A stretch of 21,928 bases of DNA, from IMG/VR virus record IMGVR_UViG_2651869749_000015; one strand, given 5' to 3'. Under the pieces are notes generated by a model. It saw only the letters and a list, made by a program, of their open reading frames with translations. It was not told the origin of the DNA and ran no database searches. A program made the translations under genes and the position numbers. Source of the DNA: a virus (taxonomy: Duplodnaviria > Heunggongvirae > Uroviricota > Caudoviricetes). Shown in pieces: positions 386-12,279 of this stretch; the stretch's first letter is position 1, and each line of letters opens with the position of its first letter.

Positions 386-1609
386 ATGGCGCTGTCTGAT
401 GCGTGGTTGCGTTCAGTTGTTGGAAAGGAACGTGATAAGGTTTTGGTTAAATCCGATCGTGATGGTCTGTCTGTCAGAGTATCACCGAAAGGTCGCGTAG
501 TGTTCCAATATCGTTATCAATGGGCAGGGAAAGGTGAGCGTCTTGATATCGGAACTTACCCGGCAACTGGATTAAAAGAGGCCAGAGAAGAAGTTATCCG
601 TCTCCGTGGTGAACTCGAGTCAAACCGCAATCCACGATTGGTCAAGCAGGCAGAAAAACGCAAAGCTACTGAAGCCATGACTGTAGAGTCTGTGATCCGT
701 GCTTGGTATGAAGCATATTGTGTAAAAAATAAAAAAGGTGCTGAGCAGATACTCCGCTCATTTGAACTGCACCTGTTCTCTAAAATCGGGAGTATCCCTC
801 ACGATGCAGCTACATTGCATGATTGGTTAGAGGTCTTGGAGCCTCTTAGCACTAAGACTCCAGCAATAGCTGACCGATTGCTAATTAACGCAAAGCAGGC
901 CCATGTCTGGGCGTATAAGAGAAAGCTCATTGAAACTCGCCCGCTGTCGGATATCACAGGTAAAGATATGGATATCCGTAAAGGTCAGAAGAAACGGTTT
1001 CTGACACATGATGAAATTAAAATCCTTTATGCTGCGATCGATGGTTCTCGAATGGTTCCTAAATACCGGGCCTTCATTAAACTATTGTTGCATTTTGGCT
1101 GCCGTAGTTCAGAGCTAATTACCGCTAGGGTGGACGATTTTGATTTCATTAATAAGGTATGGACTGTACCGCCAGAACGACATAAGACAGGGGAGATAAC
1201 AGGCGAACCACTAAAGCGGCCCATTATTGGGCCGGTTGAAGAGCTTATAAAATACGTTATCTCTATGAACAACGGTTCCGATATGCTTTTTACTAAGGAA
1301 GGAAGCAGGGAGCCAGTTGGTCGGACATCATTGCAGTCGCTGCCTTACAATTTAATGCAGTTCGCATGGCGACGTTTGGGGTATCAATTCCCTCATTGGT
1401 CTCTTCATGATTTGAGGCGAACAGCACGAACAAACTTTTCTGATCTTACTGCGCCTCATATTGCAGAAATTATGCTTGGTCATAAGTTGCCAGGGGTATG
1501 GCAGGTTTATGACAAGAGCGATTATCTAGAAGAACAGCGTAAAGCCTACCAGGTATGGTGGGAGAGGGTTGAATTGATAGTTGCTTGTATTAGCTCAGAC
1601 CCCAACTGA
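386..1609 (+). CDS. int: Tyrosine site-specific integrase (P4-like family with N-terminal arm-binding domain)
   Basis: 407 aa ORF. Catalytic signature residues are visible: R in FGCRSSEL, H-x-x-R in HDLRRTART, H in LGHKLPG and Y in VYDKSDY. It sits directly beside the prfC junction. SD-like AGGTGA lies 3 nt upstream of the ATG. Confidence 0.92.
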   Translation: MALSDAWLRSVVGKERDKVLVKSDRDGLSVRVSPKGRVVFQYRYQWAGKGERLDIGTYPATGLKEAREEVIRLRGELESNRNPRLVKQAEKRKATEAMTVESVIRAWYEAYCVKNKKGAEQILRSFELHLFSKIGSIPHDAATLHDWLEVLEPLSTKTPAIADRLLINAKQAHVWAYKRKLIETRPLSDITGKDMDIRKGQKKRFLTHDEIKILYAAIDGSRMVPKYRAFIKLLLHFGCRSSELITARVDDFDFINKVWTVPPERHKTGEITGEPLKRPIIGPVEELIKYVISMNNGSDMLFTKEGSREPVGRTSLQSLPYNLMQFAWRRLGYQFPHWSLHDLRRTARTNFSDLTAPHIAEIMLGHKLPGVWQVYDKSDYLEEQRKAYQVWWERVELIVACISSDPN

Positions 1610-1880
1610 CCGTTTGCATAGCTAGAACGAAATAAAATCTGACTGTCCGTTTTGAGCGACAACTAGACCTCAAAATATCTGTTGGATAATGGGGGTAAAA
1701 TACACTTTAAAAAAATATGCTTAATAAGTAACTTATTTTGTTTAAATTTATGAAACACTCTCTAAATTATCTCTTATAATTTAACATTCTTTCTTGATTA
1801 TATGTGTAAAAATATAGTTAAAAATGTTAACTGAGATGCGTGTGTTATTAATGTGTTGATTTCTAATGTTGTTTTTGTTT

Positions 1881-1908
1881 GCGCCTTGAATGCAAGGCGC
1901 TATTTATC
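1881..1908. terminator. GC-rich hairpin between the convergent 3' ends of int and the cargo operon (possible terminator)
   Basis: GCGCCTT-gaatgc-AAGGCGC (7 bp stem, 6 nt loop) at 1881-1900, followed by TATTTAT on the + strand. The T-run is weak on the minus strand, so strand assignment is uncertain. Confidence 0.3.
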
Positions 1909-2401
1909 AAGATAGTCTATTCAGATCAGTATTAGGTGTGCTTCTTTTTGATGCAAAGATGGATTTGAATCTTTTTGAGTAACTATCAAAAAACCATTTT
2001 GTATAATTACCTTCAATTTCCTCTAATATTGAATACTTCATCTCATGAAGTTCATTTTTATAATCACACTTTTTGCTTAACAAGTCTAAAGGTGTTGATC
2101 TGATAGATGACAACTGTTCATCACATAATAATTTCTTACCAATCCTTTGTGATAAATGAGACAGCTGCATTTCAATTAATGAGACACTGGAGGCTAAAAA
2201 ATTATCCAGCTCTAATTCTTTAGTATCTCTAGAAGAGAGCTTATCTAAAACATTATCAAAAAGAGATTCTATTTGCTGACAGATTTTATCCTTTTGCCTT
2301 GAAATATCATTTCGCTTGAATGCTCTATTATTGAAATAAGACGCAACAAGCCAACCAATTATAGCAATCACAATACTTGTATAATTAACCTCTTCCTGCA
2401 T
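1907..2401 (-). CDS. Small single-pass membrane protein of unknown function (third gene of the cargo operon; candidate effector)
   Basis: ORF with ATG at 2401 (GTG at 2404 one codon upstream). Hydrophobic helix YTSIVIAIIGWLVASYF near the N-terminus, followed by a polar, charged region. Its start overlaps the stop of the upstream gene by 17 nt. Low GC. Confidence 0.6.
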   Translation of the reverse strand: MQEEVNYTSIVIAIIGWLVASYFNNRAFKRNDISRQKDKICQQIESLFDNVLDKLSSRDTKELELDNFLASSVSLIEMQLSHLSQRIGKKLLCDEQLSSIRSTPLDLLSKKCDYKNELHEMKYSILEEIEGNYTKWFFDSYSKRFKSIFASKRSTPNTDLNRLS

Positions 2402-2717
2402 CACTCTCTGCCTTATTCAATCGTTCATCAATCAAGGTCTCAATACTCTTAATATCTTTATGAGTATAAGTTAGTTTTTTCTTAAGTTCGCTTAATGTGT
2501 AGCCTTCTACTCGGATCAAGCCACCAAACGCTTCATCAATAAATGAACGCCCATAACGGTTATATCCAGTCAACTCAACATGAACTAAATCATACTCTTT
2601 GAGAAAGCCTGCCAGATATTTGCGAAAGTTTTCCCCACAGCCTGCCCCATCGTCTGGATAGCGCCCGTAAGGCTTACTGTTGAAGTCTTTGATAACATTG
2701 ATGTTTTTAGTCTTCAT
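2385..2717 (-). CDS. Small STAS-like protein (DUF4325-type, anti-sigma-antagonist-like fold) - putative partner of the adjacent kinase
   Basis: 110 aa. The segment DLVHVELTGYNRYGRSFIDEAFGGLIRVEG matches the pattern I recall for DUF4325/STAS-like proteins (V-x-L-D/E-F/L-x-G-V, then SF-x-DE-x-F-G-x-L). Its ATG overlaps the stop of the upstream ATPase gene (2707-2717). Assignment is from memory, not an HMM hit. Confidence 0.6.
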   Translation of the reverse strand: MKTKNINVIKDFNSKPYGRYPDDGAGCGENFRKYLAGFLKEYDLVHVELTGYNRYGRSFIDEAFGGLIRVEGYTLSELKKKLTYTHKDIKSIETLIDERLNKAESDAGRG

Positions 2718-3816
2718 AGCTGACCTTGATGTTCCACTGAATTAAAGTACCTGGTACTTTATGAGTTAACTCATTAATTTTATCACCTTTCTTATTAGAA
2801 AGCTTGAACATACCTAAATTACTGTAAATCCAAAGGTTTCCATGTTCATTATTTAGTACTAGAGCTTTAATACTCTTACTTCCTTGACCATGTTTATCAT
2901 TGGCTGTACCGGTTACGTCTCCAATCATAGAAATTGCTATTTTTACTGCATCAGAAACAATACCAACTTTTACTTTAGAGCGCTCTTTATAACCTAAACC
3001 TATTCTCTCAAGTTCTTCGTTAACCGCAACCTTTAGATCTGGATATTTTGATTTGAGCGTACTCATAAACCATGTCTTTTGCATTACAGTTTCAGGTATA
3101 CCAACACCTTCATCATATATAGCAAGATACAGCTGGTCATGAATTACGTGACATGCAAGCCACCATCGTTTCTCATCATTATTTTTATGCGGATAGGCGT
3201 GTAAACCAACATTATTTATTGCTTCCTGAACAGCATCTGCATATGTATGTTCTGTTTCAGGTTTCATCTTGTTTTTATAAATTTCTTTCTGGATGAAATC
3301 TATAATCTCATCTCTATATTCTCCTCCTACCCCGCTAATAATGGGCAAGTTTTCAACGTTTTCGAAGACAGGTTTTAATTTTTCGCCCCGACATAAGGCG
3401 ACAAGCCCCGAGTCTCTTAAAAGCTGATTGACTTTAAAATCTGTTGAAAATAATAATCTGTACGATAAACCTTTACGAATTGAAGTTTCAACACTGGCAT
3501 AAAGTATTACTAATGCTGCCATTTTTATTGTTTTTGTATTTGTAAAATCTAAATATAATCTCTCATCAGGATTGTATTTTTTATTCCTGACGTGATTTAT
3601 CGAGTGTAGAGAGTGCGCAAAAAAATTAGGCTTATCTGGTGAATATATTGAAAACTCAGATGGAAACCGAATAAAGTTATTATCTTTTTTCTTTTGAGAT
3701 TTTTTTTGTTGACGAAACTGCGAATACTCTTTCCCTTGACGGGAAACACTTCGCTGCCATCTTTTAAAAGCCAGCCTAATTCTTACACTTTTTTCCTTAT
3801 TGGTCTTGTTTTCCAT
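2707..3816 (-). CDS. GHKL-superfamily ATPase / RsbW-SpoIIAB-like serine kinase domain protein with a basic N-terminal tail
   Basis: 369 aa. Bergerat-fold motifs in the C-terminal half: N-box QEAINNVGLHAY (residues ~197-208), G1 box IYDEGVGIP (D235-G239; confirmed as gatgaaggtgttggt on the minus strand at 3100-3114), G2-like RIGLGY, and C-terminal GTLIQWNIKV. Start ATG at 3816 is preceded by SD AGGAGA. First ~45 residues are very K/R/Q-rich. Confidence 0.75.
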   Translation of the reverse strand: MENKTNKEKSVRIRLAFKRWQRSVSRQGKEYSQFRQQKKSQKKKDNNFIRFPSEFSIYSPDKPNFFAHSLHSINHVRNKKYNPDERLYLDFTNTKTIKMAALVILYASVETSIRKGLSYRLLFSTDFKVNQLLRDSGLVALCRGEKLKPVFENVENLPIISGVGGEYRDEIIDFIQKEIYKNKMKPETEHTYADAVQEAINNVGLHAYPHKNNDEKRWWLACHVIHDQLYLAIYDEGVGIPETVMQKTWFMSTLKSKYPDLKVAVNEELERIGLGYKERSKVKVGIVSDAVKIAISMIGDVTGTANDKHGQGSKSIKALVLNNEHGNLWIYSNLGMFKLSNKKGDKINELTHKVPGTLIQWNIKVSYED

Positions 3817-3981
3817 GTGTCTCCTATCAATATGCTGTTCTTTTCATACTACGAATGATAGTACAATTAAACCAAGATTGGTATACAGACTACACGTCGT
3901 CCAGCACAAAAATTTTGTTGGTGGGTGAGATTTAAAAACTTAGTTAAATCATGTAGATACGATTGATTGAGTATAAAAATA

Positions 3982-4023
3982 CCGTTCTTAGCCATGCTCA
4001 AGAACGGCTTGGTTTTGTTGTTG
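3982..4023. terminator. Hairpin with flanking T/A runs; likely bidirectional intrinsic terminator insulating the cargo operon from the early-left operon
   Basis: CCGTTCTT-agccatgctc-AAGAACGG (8 bp stem) at 3982-4007, followed by CTTGGTTTTGTTGTTG on + and preceded by ATAAAAATA, which gives a T-run on the minus strand. Confidence 0.4.
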
Positions 4024-4563
4024 ATAAAAATACTAAAGCTTTAACGAGTCTTAAATCAGTATTGAAATAAAAAACTCAAATTAATTAATAAGAGGTTTGT
4101 TATTGAAAAAACATAACCCAAGAAAATTCATTAATTTTGAGTTTCAATTAACACAAAACACAACTTAATAATGCTCATGAATATATTAAATCATTAATGC
4201 AGATAGTATTATTACCGAATGAGAACACAGCAATTTAGCTTATTCTGCCCTATTTATACCACTGCTCCTGACCTTGTGTGGTGGCAGGAGCATCAGCCCA
4301 GTCACGATTCTTGGGTTGCTGACTTGGGGCACGATCATTACTTGACACATTCTACTTTTCTTCCTTGAGAACCTTAATATTTCCATATGTCGCTACTTTA
4401 CACTCCTGCTTTCAGGCCTACACTTCGCTTACCATTAACATATTGTATTTCTTGGTATCAGCCGATGACTTTACCCTTTTGGGGCTCGGGACATTTTCTC
4501 TTGTATCTTTCAGGAAAATATTAAATAACCATTTATCCATATAGTGATGTCAACTAATAGCTA

Positions 4564-4758
4564 CTACTCAATAATTCCAGCAAATCTGTATATCTTGTGT
4601 GATGCCCATTTATTTGGGCAGGATTTAATATCCGGATCTGGAAACTCAGGCCTGTATTTCTGGCCAGTTCTCCTGTTTACGCTGTTCCAGCGAAGAACGG
4701 TCGATACTGAAACGCCACAGAAGTCGGCGACTTGTTTAGTTGTCATTAAGTTGTTCAT
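4564..4758 (-). CDS. Excisionase-like / AlpA-family small HTH DNA-binding protein
   Basis: 64 aa, MNNLMTTKQVADFCGVSVSTVLRWNSVNRRTGQ... with a helix-turn-helix. It is the last gene of the leftward operon, on the integrase side of the prophage. Confidence 0.55.
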   Translation of the reverse strand: MNNLMTTKQVADFCGVSVSTVLRWNSVNRRTGQKYRPEFPDPDIKSCPNKWASHKIYRFAGIIE

Positions 4759-11122: not shown

Positions 11123-12279
11123 ACAGTTTAACGGCAAATAACCGTTTGTCGCAACAGCTGGTGGTCAGTGTCGCTGCACACCTGTTGTTACGGCATGAAT
11201 GCAGATTACCAAATCACCTGGCTGTAAGTAACCACAGAGAACTTTACCTGACTGTGGGGGGCGAGTTGTGCAGGAACTTAACCGCTGGTTTCGTGACGGA
11301 AGAGGACTTTATGTTCATGTTATTCGTTGGGAGCCAGAAACACAGCGCGTTATCTATCTTCGCAAAGACTACCCGCATGAGTGCTTTAGTCCTTTGTGGA
11401 AATTCAGGCGTGATTTTGTTGAGTGTGAAGGACCACCAGCATATTGATTCTGCAATTCCGGGACGTTACACTGTTCAGGCACCTTATAAAGCGGGTGCCG
11501 GGATTGGCGTCCTGAAATTGTCAACGGCGATGTATGACGCGCCAGCGTCTTTTTTATCGTCCGCATTTGCTCACATCCAGATTATGGTGGGCTGGGCGGG
11601 GGCACCGAAAGGTGCGCCGGTCTCCGTTGACGCCGGTTACGCCAACCCCGTCCAGTTCACCACCAGTGAAATTGGCGTTTCCGGTGGTGGAAGTTTTTCA
11701 CTGTCAACGGAGGCTGCCATCATGGCTACGATCCAAGCCCTCACTCAACCTGAAATCACCATTGACAACGGCCAGGCCGTTACCACTTCTTTGGCTGTTG
11801 CCAACTTCTTCTCCAAGCGTCACGACGATGTGCTGAAAAAGATCCGCACTCTGGATTGTTCCCCTGAGTTTTGTGCCCGCAATTTTGCGGAGACATCGAT
11901 TTCGGTAAATCAACCGAACGGTGGTACACGCAAGCTCCCTTGCTATCAAATCACACGAGACGGTTTTGCGTTTCTTGCTATGGGTTTCACGGGTAAACGT
12001 GCTGCCCGATTCAAAGAGGCATACATCAATGCCTTTAACCAGATGGAAAAACTGCTTTCAAAGCCATCCACGCTGAGCGATGCCGCAGATAACGCCAGCG
12101 TGCTTTACTCCCACCTGTCGGTAATCCACAAGGTCTGGCTGCAGCAGCTTTATCCTATGTTGGCAAAAGCTGAATCTCCGCTGGCTGTTAGCTTATATGA
12201 TTATATTAATGATGCTTCGGCGCTGGCCTGCCTCATAAATTTGTCGCTGAACCCTTCAGAGGTAAGGGGGCGCAAATGA
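11119..12279 (+). CDS. Rha-family phage regulatory protein (Rha domain in the C-terminal half; N-terminal ~200 codons of the long ORF are doubtful)
   Basis: The pRha signature ITIDNGQAVTTSLAVANFFSKRHDDVLKKIRTL...YQITRDGFAFLAMGFTGKRAARFKEAYINAFNQMEKLL starts at an internal ATG at 11722 with GGAGG 9 nt upstream. The upstream part of the 386-codon ORF has an off-frame-like composition (see findings). Confidence 0.6.
   Translation: MNSLTANNRLSQQLVVSVAAHLLLRHECRLPNHLAVSNHRELYLTVGGELCRNLTAGFVTEEDFMFMLFVGSQKHSALSIFAKTTRMSALVLCGNSGVILLSVKDHQHIDSAIPGRYTVQAPYKAGAGIGVLKLSTAMYDAPASFLSSAFAHIQIMVGWAGAPKGAPVSVDAGYANPVQFTTSEIGVSGGGSFSLSTEAAIMATIQALTQPEITIDNGQAVTTSLAVANFFSKRHDDVLKKIRTLDCSPEFCARNFAETSISVNQPNGGTRKLPCYQITRDGFAFLAMGFTGKRAARFKEAYINAFNQMEKLLSKPSTLSDAADNASVLYSHLSVIHKVWLQQLYPMLAKAESPLAVSLYDYINDASALACLINLSLNPSEVRGRK

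Follow-up and report, generated by a model that had tools for sequence, protein, structure and literature searches.

Positions 1907 to 3816 of IMGVR_UViG_2651869749_000015, a 21,928-nucleotide stretch of Caudoviricetes DNA from IMG/VR (hereafter the window), hold a cassette of three minus-strand genes, here named A, B, and C, that encode a kinase-like protein, a small STAS-like partner, and a membrane-anchored third component. With modest confidence, we favor the reading that this cassette is a putative phosphorylation-gated, toxin-antitoxin-like anti-phage module of the VapKSC type. What is new here is best called a VapKSC-type kinase-STAS switch with remotely homologous kinase (K) and STAS (S) components and a membrane protein as its third component. 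Temperate phages and P4-like satellites carry the cassette as an accessory (moron) module.

VapKSC is a three-gene operon in which VapK, a STAS-GHKL kinase, phosphorylates VapS on S48 and thereby frees the PIN toxin VapC (Chambers et al., EMBO J 2026, PMC13373217). VapS consists of a STAS domain plus a short tail, and the operon provides approximately 2 logs of protection against phage Bas42 that is abolished by the VapC D28A, VapS S48A, or VapK F54A substitution (PMC13373217). The same authors predicted that the kinase-STAS pair is modular, and they describe CapK/CapS, in which a kinase activated by single-stranded DNA (ssDNA) and built of helix-turn-helix (HTH), STAS, and GHKL domains phosphorylates a repressor built of STAS and winged HTH (wHTH) domains (PMC13373217). 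When VapK and VapS sequences from the AlphaFold 3 files of Chambers et al. were used for comparison, the profile of A aligned with VapK over 232 columns across both domains (hhalign probability 85%, E 6e-6), and VapS, like B, belonged to Pfam DUF4325 (PF14213, E 2.7e-17). Residue S58 of B and S48 of VapS are equivalent to within one alignment position, and both are expected to open helix 2 of the STAS fold. Judging by these comparisons, the idea of a phosphorylation-gated effector has experimental precedent in VapKSC, a system with kinase and STAS components homologous to A and B.

An earlier note on the window, made from its letters, had described three overlapping minus-strand open reading frames (ORFs) in an AT-rich insert, and both observations held. 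Gene A spans 2707-3816 (369 residues), gene B 2385-2717 (110 residues), and gene C 1907-2404, the latter encoding 165 residues from a GTG codon or 164 residues from the next codon, the ATG at 2401, which is the RefSeq start and the probable one. The reading frames of A and B overlap by 11 nucleotides and those of B and C by 17-20, while an AGGAG motif stands 5 nucleotides ahead of the ATG of gene A. G+C content (GC) was measured at 0.28-0.40 over approximately 1650-4200, as compared with 0.42-0.52 in the flanking phage genes.

Protein A is predicted to comprise a basic N-terminal helix (residues 6-26), a STAS domain (~47-163), and a GHKL serine-kinase-like domain (~168-364) that carries a helical insert (~240-300), according to an AlphaFold model built from a 120-sequence alignment (mean predicted local distance difference test score, pLDDT, 88.8; predicted template modeling score, pTM, 0.83). 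The STAS domain is additional to what the earlier note had seen. The kinase-like domain shows the Bergerat alpha/beta sandwich, and in structure A most closely matches anti-sigma factor kinases, with SpoIIAB/RsbW as the closest GHKL structural class. The Bergerat motifs previously read in A are real and consist of the N-box E198/N202/H206, the G1 motif D235-x-G237-x-G239, a G2-like H309-GQGSKS, and a terminal G356-T357. Residues E198, N202, H206, D235, G237, and G239 are kept without exception in 66/66 homologues, and this invariance indicates that the ATP site is under selection; G310, G312, and G356-T357 are likewise kept in all 64 complete A sequences. The key asparagine must be reassigned, since the E-x3-N-x3-H spacing makes N202 the catalytic N-box residue and not N201, which is kept in 35 of the 66 homologues. 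The HATPase_c similarity that had been anticipated was present but remained under the gathering cutoff: Pfam HATPase_c and HATPase_c_2 scored 16 and 14.6 bits on A against cutoffs of 27.4 and 26.4 (E 0.012 for the sub-threshold HATPase_c_2 match), and membership of A in the GHKL superfamily thus rests on fold and motifs. Scores against RsbW (E 2e-6, 27.1 bits) and SpoIIAB (E 5e-5, 23.2 bits) are to be read against NCBIfam cutoffs of 145 and 135, respectively. A strongly matches phrog_3364, a phage family in PHROGs that lacks characterization (E 9e-56). Profile sequence searches of PDB chains with A and B returned no relevant match, hence the need for fold comparison, and no HTH family of Pfam matched either protein.

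The second ORF had been described as STAS-like with an expected match to DUF4325, and this proved accurate. B matches DUF4325 (PF14213, a STAS-like domain of unknown function) with 28.8 bits against a gathering cutoff of 23 (E 1e-6), and its homologues from Pseudomonas aeruginosa and Providencia carry precomputed PF14213 matches. The protein has an invariant N-terminal PYGR motif (residues 16-19) and a nearly invariant block, G-Y-N-R-Y-G-R-S58-F-x-D-E-x-F-G-G-L-I-R. S58 is the sole invariant serine or threonine of B (66/66 sequences across all loci) and is under selection, which makes it a candidate phospho-acceptor. B also matches positions 340-438 of the 441-position phage profile phrog_5816, which A does not match. 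The location of this match at the end of the profile implies that the members of a larger phage protein family end in a fused DUF4325 domain, and the lack of a match for A implies that the fusion partner there is something other than A.

The three genes are inherited together. Homologues of A form 240 protein clusters across Gammaproteobacteria, and the family is common, with hundreds of contigs in Escherichia coli, Klebsiella, and P. aeruginosa. In a survey of one-genome-per-species contigs, which yielded 18 full loci from sources including Yersinia, Edwardsiella, Hafnia, Pseudomonas, Shewanella, Haemophilus, Avibacterium, Methylophaga, and Marinobacterium, homologues of B and C lay directly downstream of A in 18/18 cases, with C frameshifted in one. 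Relatives of A were present on 47 viral contigs of IMG/VR, and B followed A in all 45 contigs long enough to show it; the third gene on these contigs encodes 146-232 residues, mostly with a hydrophobic helix, even where A identity is as low as 23-30%. Overlapping or abutting reading frames are conserved among the triad loci. The A-B-C order is therefore kept in all informative loci (18 genomes, 45 viral contigs, and Marinobacter phage AS1), and the recurrence of the same three families in the same order is more than chance. This is the co-occurrence that the earlier note had suggested looking for in a gene-neighborhood survey.

Among sequenced phages, megablast with the cassette gave no match, and a translated search gave Marinobacter phage AS1 as its sole match. 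In this isolated, temperate phage, the triad (AS1_41/40/39) lies directly downstream of an HTH gene divergent from cro. Francisella phage KIRK carries a set of genes for a 293-residue protein, a DUF4325 protein, and a transmembrane (TM) protein directly after cI. The version of the cassette found in the window is present in 6 of 5,426 complete E. coli genomes, and a sensitive DNA search located a diverged version in 4 further genomes of the same collection. Copies with more than 90% identity occur in six taxa, namely E. coli, E. albertii, Klebsiella, Enterobacter, Yersinia, and Pantoea, which shows recent horizontal spread of a patchily distributed cassette. Two individual loci look irregular. 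In Avibacterium gallinarum (locus L017, 9339-9883), an apparent frameshift splits the C homologue into two ORFs while A and B are intact, and this could be decay of the proposed effector. In one P. aeruginosa assembly (GCA_036315505.1; locus L026, 11098-11985), B and C are absent from the called genes, which may reflect mutation or gene calling; in all other respects the locus matches that of seven sister assemblies.

The cassette is housed in mobile elements. The window represents the left arm of a lambdoid (CPS-53/e14-like) prophage, which adjoins yjjG in near-identical E. coli genomes. A Pfam census of 128 flank ORFs from 46 non-redundant loci, for which the 25 most frequent families were listed, gave Phage_integrase (13 ORFs), Peptidase_S24 (6), HTH_3 (3), CI (2), CII (2), Terminase_6C (3), Terminase_6N (2), Portal (3), and Lysozyme (2). 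No sigma factor was among these 25 families. A conserved chromosomal setting with sigma factors, which the earlier note had named as the observation that would speak against its proposal, was thus not what we encountered; the flanks hold integrases, cI-type repressors, terminase, and lysis genes. At the mutS-cinA/recA locus of P. aeruginosa, an integrase neighbors the triad, and prophage tail genes are present at some copies and absent at others; rpoS, approximately 3.6 kb upstream and beyond mutS, is conserved core genome and not a linked partner. The Providencia triad lies between lysis genes and terminase.

One clade of the family occupies a recognized defense hotspot. The psu-int interval of P4-like satellites is a reservoir of anti-phage systems (Rousset et al. 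2022, PMC9122126). In E. coli PSS-16, a P4-like satellite at ssrA carries the diverged triad, and its genes run int - A - B - C - psu - delta ... icd - alpha. P4-like elements of this kind, with the triad in the int-psu position, also make up the loci of Yersinia, Edwardsiella, and Hafnia. Table S1B of Rousset et al. lists system #69, 'HATPase_c | DUF4325', with 9 loci and the remark '1 TM in protein 3', but offers no functional comment, and the main text of that article does not mention the system and contains neither DUF4325 nor STAS (PMC9122126). The earlier statement that the cassette is undescribed must therefore be narrowed: no PADLOC model covers it and the literature describes no function for it, but its P4-satellite version had already been catalogued. 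Full-text literature searches found no description of the triad beyond this table entry; in the article on Shield, an apparent 'STAS' match was rejected because the word was 'stasis'. Supplementary file 6 of Rousset et al., a per-contig cassette table, holds more DUF4325-containing two- or three-gene cassettes beside DinI genes, for example WP_016242317 with WP_016242316, and WP_042005405 with WP_119743262 and WP_086258518.

Protein C agrees with the membrane protein that had been proposed. Family alignments show an N-terminal hydrophobic helix (approximately residues 6-27, with an invariant W18) that is followed by a basic stretch (R31, E33, and K38), and the AlphaFold model is all-helical, with a long helix (7-56) and then a three-helix bundle. 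Acidic residues precede the hydrophobic helix and basic ones follow it, so that by the positive-inside rule the helical bundle would face the cytoplasm, within possible reach of B. No family in Pfam, NCBIfam, or PADLOC accounts for C, and no PIN match was obtained in Pfam, NCBIfam, or PHROGs. Several weak similarities were rejected. The match to the holin-related phrog_4237 (E 7.5e-4 over 35 residues) is driven by the hydrophobic helix, and the cassette adjoins lysis genes solely in Providencia prophages; the matches to DUF7249 and to LeoBC (PADLOC, E 0.014) are driven by the hydrophobic helix or a coiled coil.

Homologues of C were difficult to collect, as a single-sequence search returned 4 matches and a profile search was required. 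Outside enterobacteria these homologues have an additional C-terminal hydrophobic helix, and the Pasteurellaceae versions have an additional N-terminal one. Effector swapping within this cassette family was considered and rejected, since third-gene proteins keep one plan even in the most distant loci. The plan shared in the viral contigs consists of the hydrophobic helix, the basic stretch, and an aromatic (Y/F)W motif approximately 40 residues further on. The third-gene proteins accordingly look like one divergent superfamily and not like swapped effectors.

Taken as a VapKSC-type module, the cassette would operate as follows. A would be a cytoplasmic sensor kinase that joins a STAS domain to a GHKL domain of the SpoIIAB/RsbW class, B a small adaptor or antitoxin, and C a membrane-anchored effector. 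In the uninfected lysogen, B would keep C inactive. A signal associated with infection would activate A, which would phosphorylate B on S58, and phosphorylated B would then release C. Freed C may oligomerize or otherwise perturb the inner membrane, such that the cell arrests or the superinfecting phage is blocked, as abortive infection or exclusion. Within this scheme, we infer the phosphorylation of B by A, the binding of B to C, the toxicity or effector role of C, what the trigger is, and protection from phage as the result. It is possible that the trigger is something other than the ssDNA to which CapK/VapK respond, given that A does not conserve the ssDNA-contact residue and carries a basic N-terminal helix and a lid insert of its own.

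Several observations weigh against this model. The Kyte-Doolittle maximum of the C helix is 1.64 (residues 6-24), at the threshold for a TM call, the C model is of moderate confidence (pLDDT 73), and a fold search recovered no recognizable toxin or pore fold for C, with generic helical bundles at best (E of at least 0.16). The profile of B against VapS is weak when taken alone (probability 1.7%), though colinear, with S58 one residue after S48. The ssDNA-contact aromatic F54 of VapK aligns to a variable column of A (position 96), where Y9, S8, D8, T7, K7, and others occur. A scan of 3817-3980, from the upstream terminator to gene A, gave no promoter with at least 9 of 12 consensus matches, and by eye this segment holds only weak promoter candidates. 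No PADLOC-DB v2 model matches A or B, and C gives nothing significant. Lastly, an E. coli candidate named VPUS (hypothetical, STAS-like, hypothetical), which may belong to the cassette family or to VapKSC, was cloned and scored as non-defensive in the DefensePredictor screen; it is not used as evidence here. The VPUS accessions, WP_000060412.1, WP_001244589.1, and WP_000154254.1, are not in the tables of Rousset et al. and differ from those of E. coli VapKSC and of the cassette, and at 1,871 bp VPUS is closer in size to VapKSC (1,860 bp) than to the cassette (1,910 bp).

Other explanations can be drawn from the same features. C might be a constitutive inner-membrane block of DNA entry or of another envelope step, with A and B tuning its activity or level, which would make the cassette a non-abortive superinfection exclusion system. 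C is small, membrane-anchored, and prophage-encoded, it has neither an enzymatic nor a known pore fold, and the positions of the AS1 triad after the HTH gene divergent from cro and of the KIRK set after cI would suit such a role. However, the strictly conserved kinase site and the invariant acceptor serine favor a triggered switch over a passive block, and VapKSC, the closest characterized relative, is a triggered toxin system; exclusion of this kind appears unlikely to us. More unlikely still is that the cassette is an addiction or stabilization toxin-antitoxin of the mobile element, or a DNA-damage or stress module, that lacks a specific anti-phage role. The cassette does have a layout resembling that of toxin-antitoxin pairs, with tight translational coupling, the VapKSC authors state that modules of this type may answer global stress such as DNA damage (PMC13373217), and VPUS, a possible relative, showed no defense in one screen, but the P4 int-psu hotspot and the other variable phage accessory slots in which the cassette resides are sites enriched for antiviral cargo.

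The earlier note had left room for a regulatory moron, in which A and B would form a partner-switching pair acting on a sigma or transcription factor encoded elsewhere by host or phage, with C as an anchor or signal input. The structural resemblance of A to anti-sigma factor kinases agrees with this idea, as does the fact that CapK/CapS, relatives of VapK/VapS, regulate transcription. The idea is weakened by the lack of a linked sigma factor among the flank families listed above, by the lack of DNA-binding domains in A and B (the 110-residue B has no CapS wHTH and A has no CapK HTH), and by spread among unrelated hosts; its movement between unrelated phages and genera means that the cassette cannot rely on a partner specific to one lineage. 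Co-inheritance of the third gene is, moreover, strict, and we regard the regulatory moron as very improbable. The least probable of these alternatives reverses the flow of information, such that C would be a sensor that detects envelope perturbation and relays it via B to A, whose real targets would be other host or phage proteins. In its favor, sequence does not reveal the direction in which information flows, and A has an extra basic N-terminal helix and a helical insert. Against this arrangement, the STAS protein is the kinase substrate in all characterized relatives (SpoIIAB/AA, RsbW/V, CapK/S, and VapK/S), the kinase itself is the sensor in CapK and VapK, and the cassette has no additional target gene linked to it.

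In the window, the cassette lies between int and the excisionase gene, as the earlier note had placed it. The tyrosine integrase gene (386-1609, plus strand; Pfam Phage_integrase and Arm-DNA-bind_3) is a prophage gene convergent with the cassette, and an excisionase-like ORF of 64 residues (4564-4758, minus strand) shows an HTH_17/MerR-like match below the Pfam cutoff (HTH_17, E 1.4e-4). The insulation of the cassette by hairpins on both sides stood for one side. The terminator-like hairpin 5' of gene A (3981-4008) has its T-run on the cassette strand, the minus strand, and is correctly oriented to block leftward read-through from the xis side into the cassette. The G+C-rich palindromic hairpin at 1881-1900, between the int stop codon and the end of gene C, is also present; its T-run is confined to the plus strand, and it is therefore more likely an int terminator or a shared stem than a terminator of the cassette. 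The terminator scan returned 2 sites where 1.3 +/- 1.1 were expected, and the count is not significant.

Between gene A and the excisionase-like ORF, positions 3817-4563 form an AT-rich stretch of approximately 750 bp (GC 0.27-0.43) that holds no convincing ORF and contains the hairpin 5' of gene A and an AT-rich palindrome at 4062-4107. The matching stretch of E. coli PS2Canimalfeces3 has no annotated genes, and the backbone beyond it differs (DUF551 pseudogenes). Elsewhere in the window, positions 11479-11555 and 11580-11667 (plus strand) match the Rfam isrK Hfq-binding RNA (62 bits) and the C4 antisense RNA (81 bits) above the gathering score. Both matches overlap an Icd-like translation (11455-11760) that is 38% identical to the Icd-like protein of P4 satellites, and the whole stretch is a P1/P7-type c4-icd-ant immunity module within a lambdoid prophage.

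If the favored model is true, the kinase-STAS switch of CapKS/VapKSC would be a modular trigger of general use, to which phages and satellites attach different effectors, and the effector here would be a membrane protein in place of a nuclease. The cassette is missed by the PADLOC models tested, and current defense annotation is thus blind to it. As a compact cassette of 1.9 kb with clear mutational handles (N202/D235 of A, S58 of B, and deletion of C), it makes the model directly testable.

Compared with known systems, the cassette shares its core with several and its whole with one catalogued entry. SpoIIAB-SpoIIAA and RsbW-RsbV belong to sporulation or stress operons, whereas the cassette is carried on a mobile element, has no sigma partner, and encodes a kinase with a fused STAS domain. 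CapK/CapS is similar in pairing an anti-sigma-class GHKL serine kinase with a STAS-domain partner encoded immediately downstream, but CapK bears an HTH at its N-terminus and CapS a wHTH at its C-terminus, and the immune operon that they jointly repress lies downstream. Such DNA-binding domains are lacking in A and B, and the cassette is not located upstream of CBASS, Bub, or Thoeris operons; phage or core genes lie downstream of it. System #69 (Rousset et al. 2022) is the same family. Its proteins are identical to the PSS-16 ones, and these share 48% (A), 61% (B), and 49% (C) identity with the proteins encoded in the window. System #69 is found in the P4-like int-psu hotspot, while the copy in the window sits at the int-xis junction of a lambdoid prophage and not in a P4 element.

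Phage lambda RexAB is a prophage-encoded pair of a cytoplasmic sensor and a membrane protein, and rexAB lies in the slot next to the repressor gene. By analogy, the AS1 and KIRK triads occupy the slot by the repressor gene. The cassette differs from RexAB in having three components and a proposed phospho-switch in place of two components, and no sequence similarity to RexAB was detected, as A, B, and C draw no PADLOC match. A bolder version of our proposal, which we put forward tentatively, is that the triad is a new and widespread abortive-infection or exclusion system in which a phage-sensing GHKL kinase with a trigger other than ssDNA phosphorylates a STAS-like adaptor and so unleashes a dedicated membrane-disrupting protein, as a phospho-switched functional analogue of RexAB.

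VapKSC differs from the cassette chiefly in its third gene, which encodes a PIN nuclease where the cassette encodes a membrane-anchored helical protein. VapK is approximately 23% identical to A over the aligned region, and A forms a separate family, set apart by an additional basic helix at its N-terminus and by a helical insert approximately 60 residues long. The ssDNA-sensing aromatic (VapK F54 / CapK W68) is not conserved in A, and B has a family-specific N-terminal PYGR segment that distinguishes it from VapS. E. coli VapKSC is annotated as ATP-binding, STAS-like, and PIN proteins and is present in 2 of 5,426 complete genomes; in E. coli JNE25-001 (locus L084, 5067-6926), it lies at a prophage end, between mntR and prophage tail-fiber genes. 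A search of viral contigs for VapK found none. In both systems, nevertheless, the gene order is kinase, small STAS protein, and third gene, and both occur at prophage ends in E. coli. In both, too, the kinase joins STAS and GHKL domains with no HTH, and a DUF4325 protein with a conserved serine is encoded directly after it.

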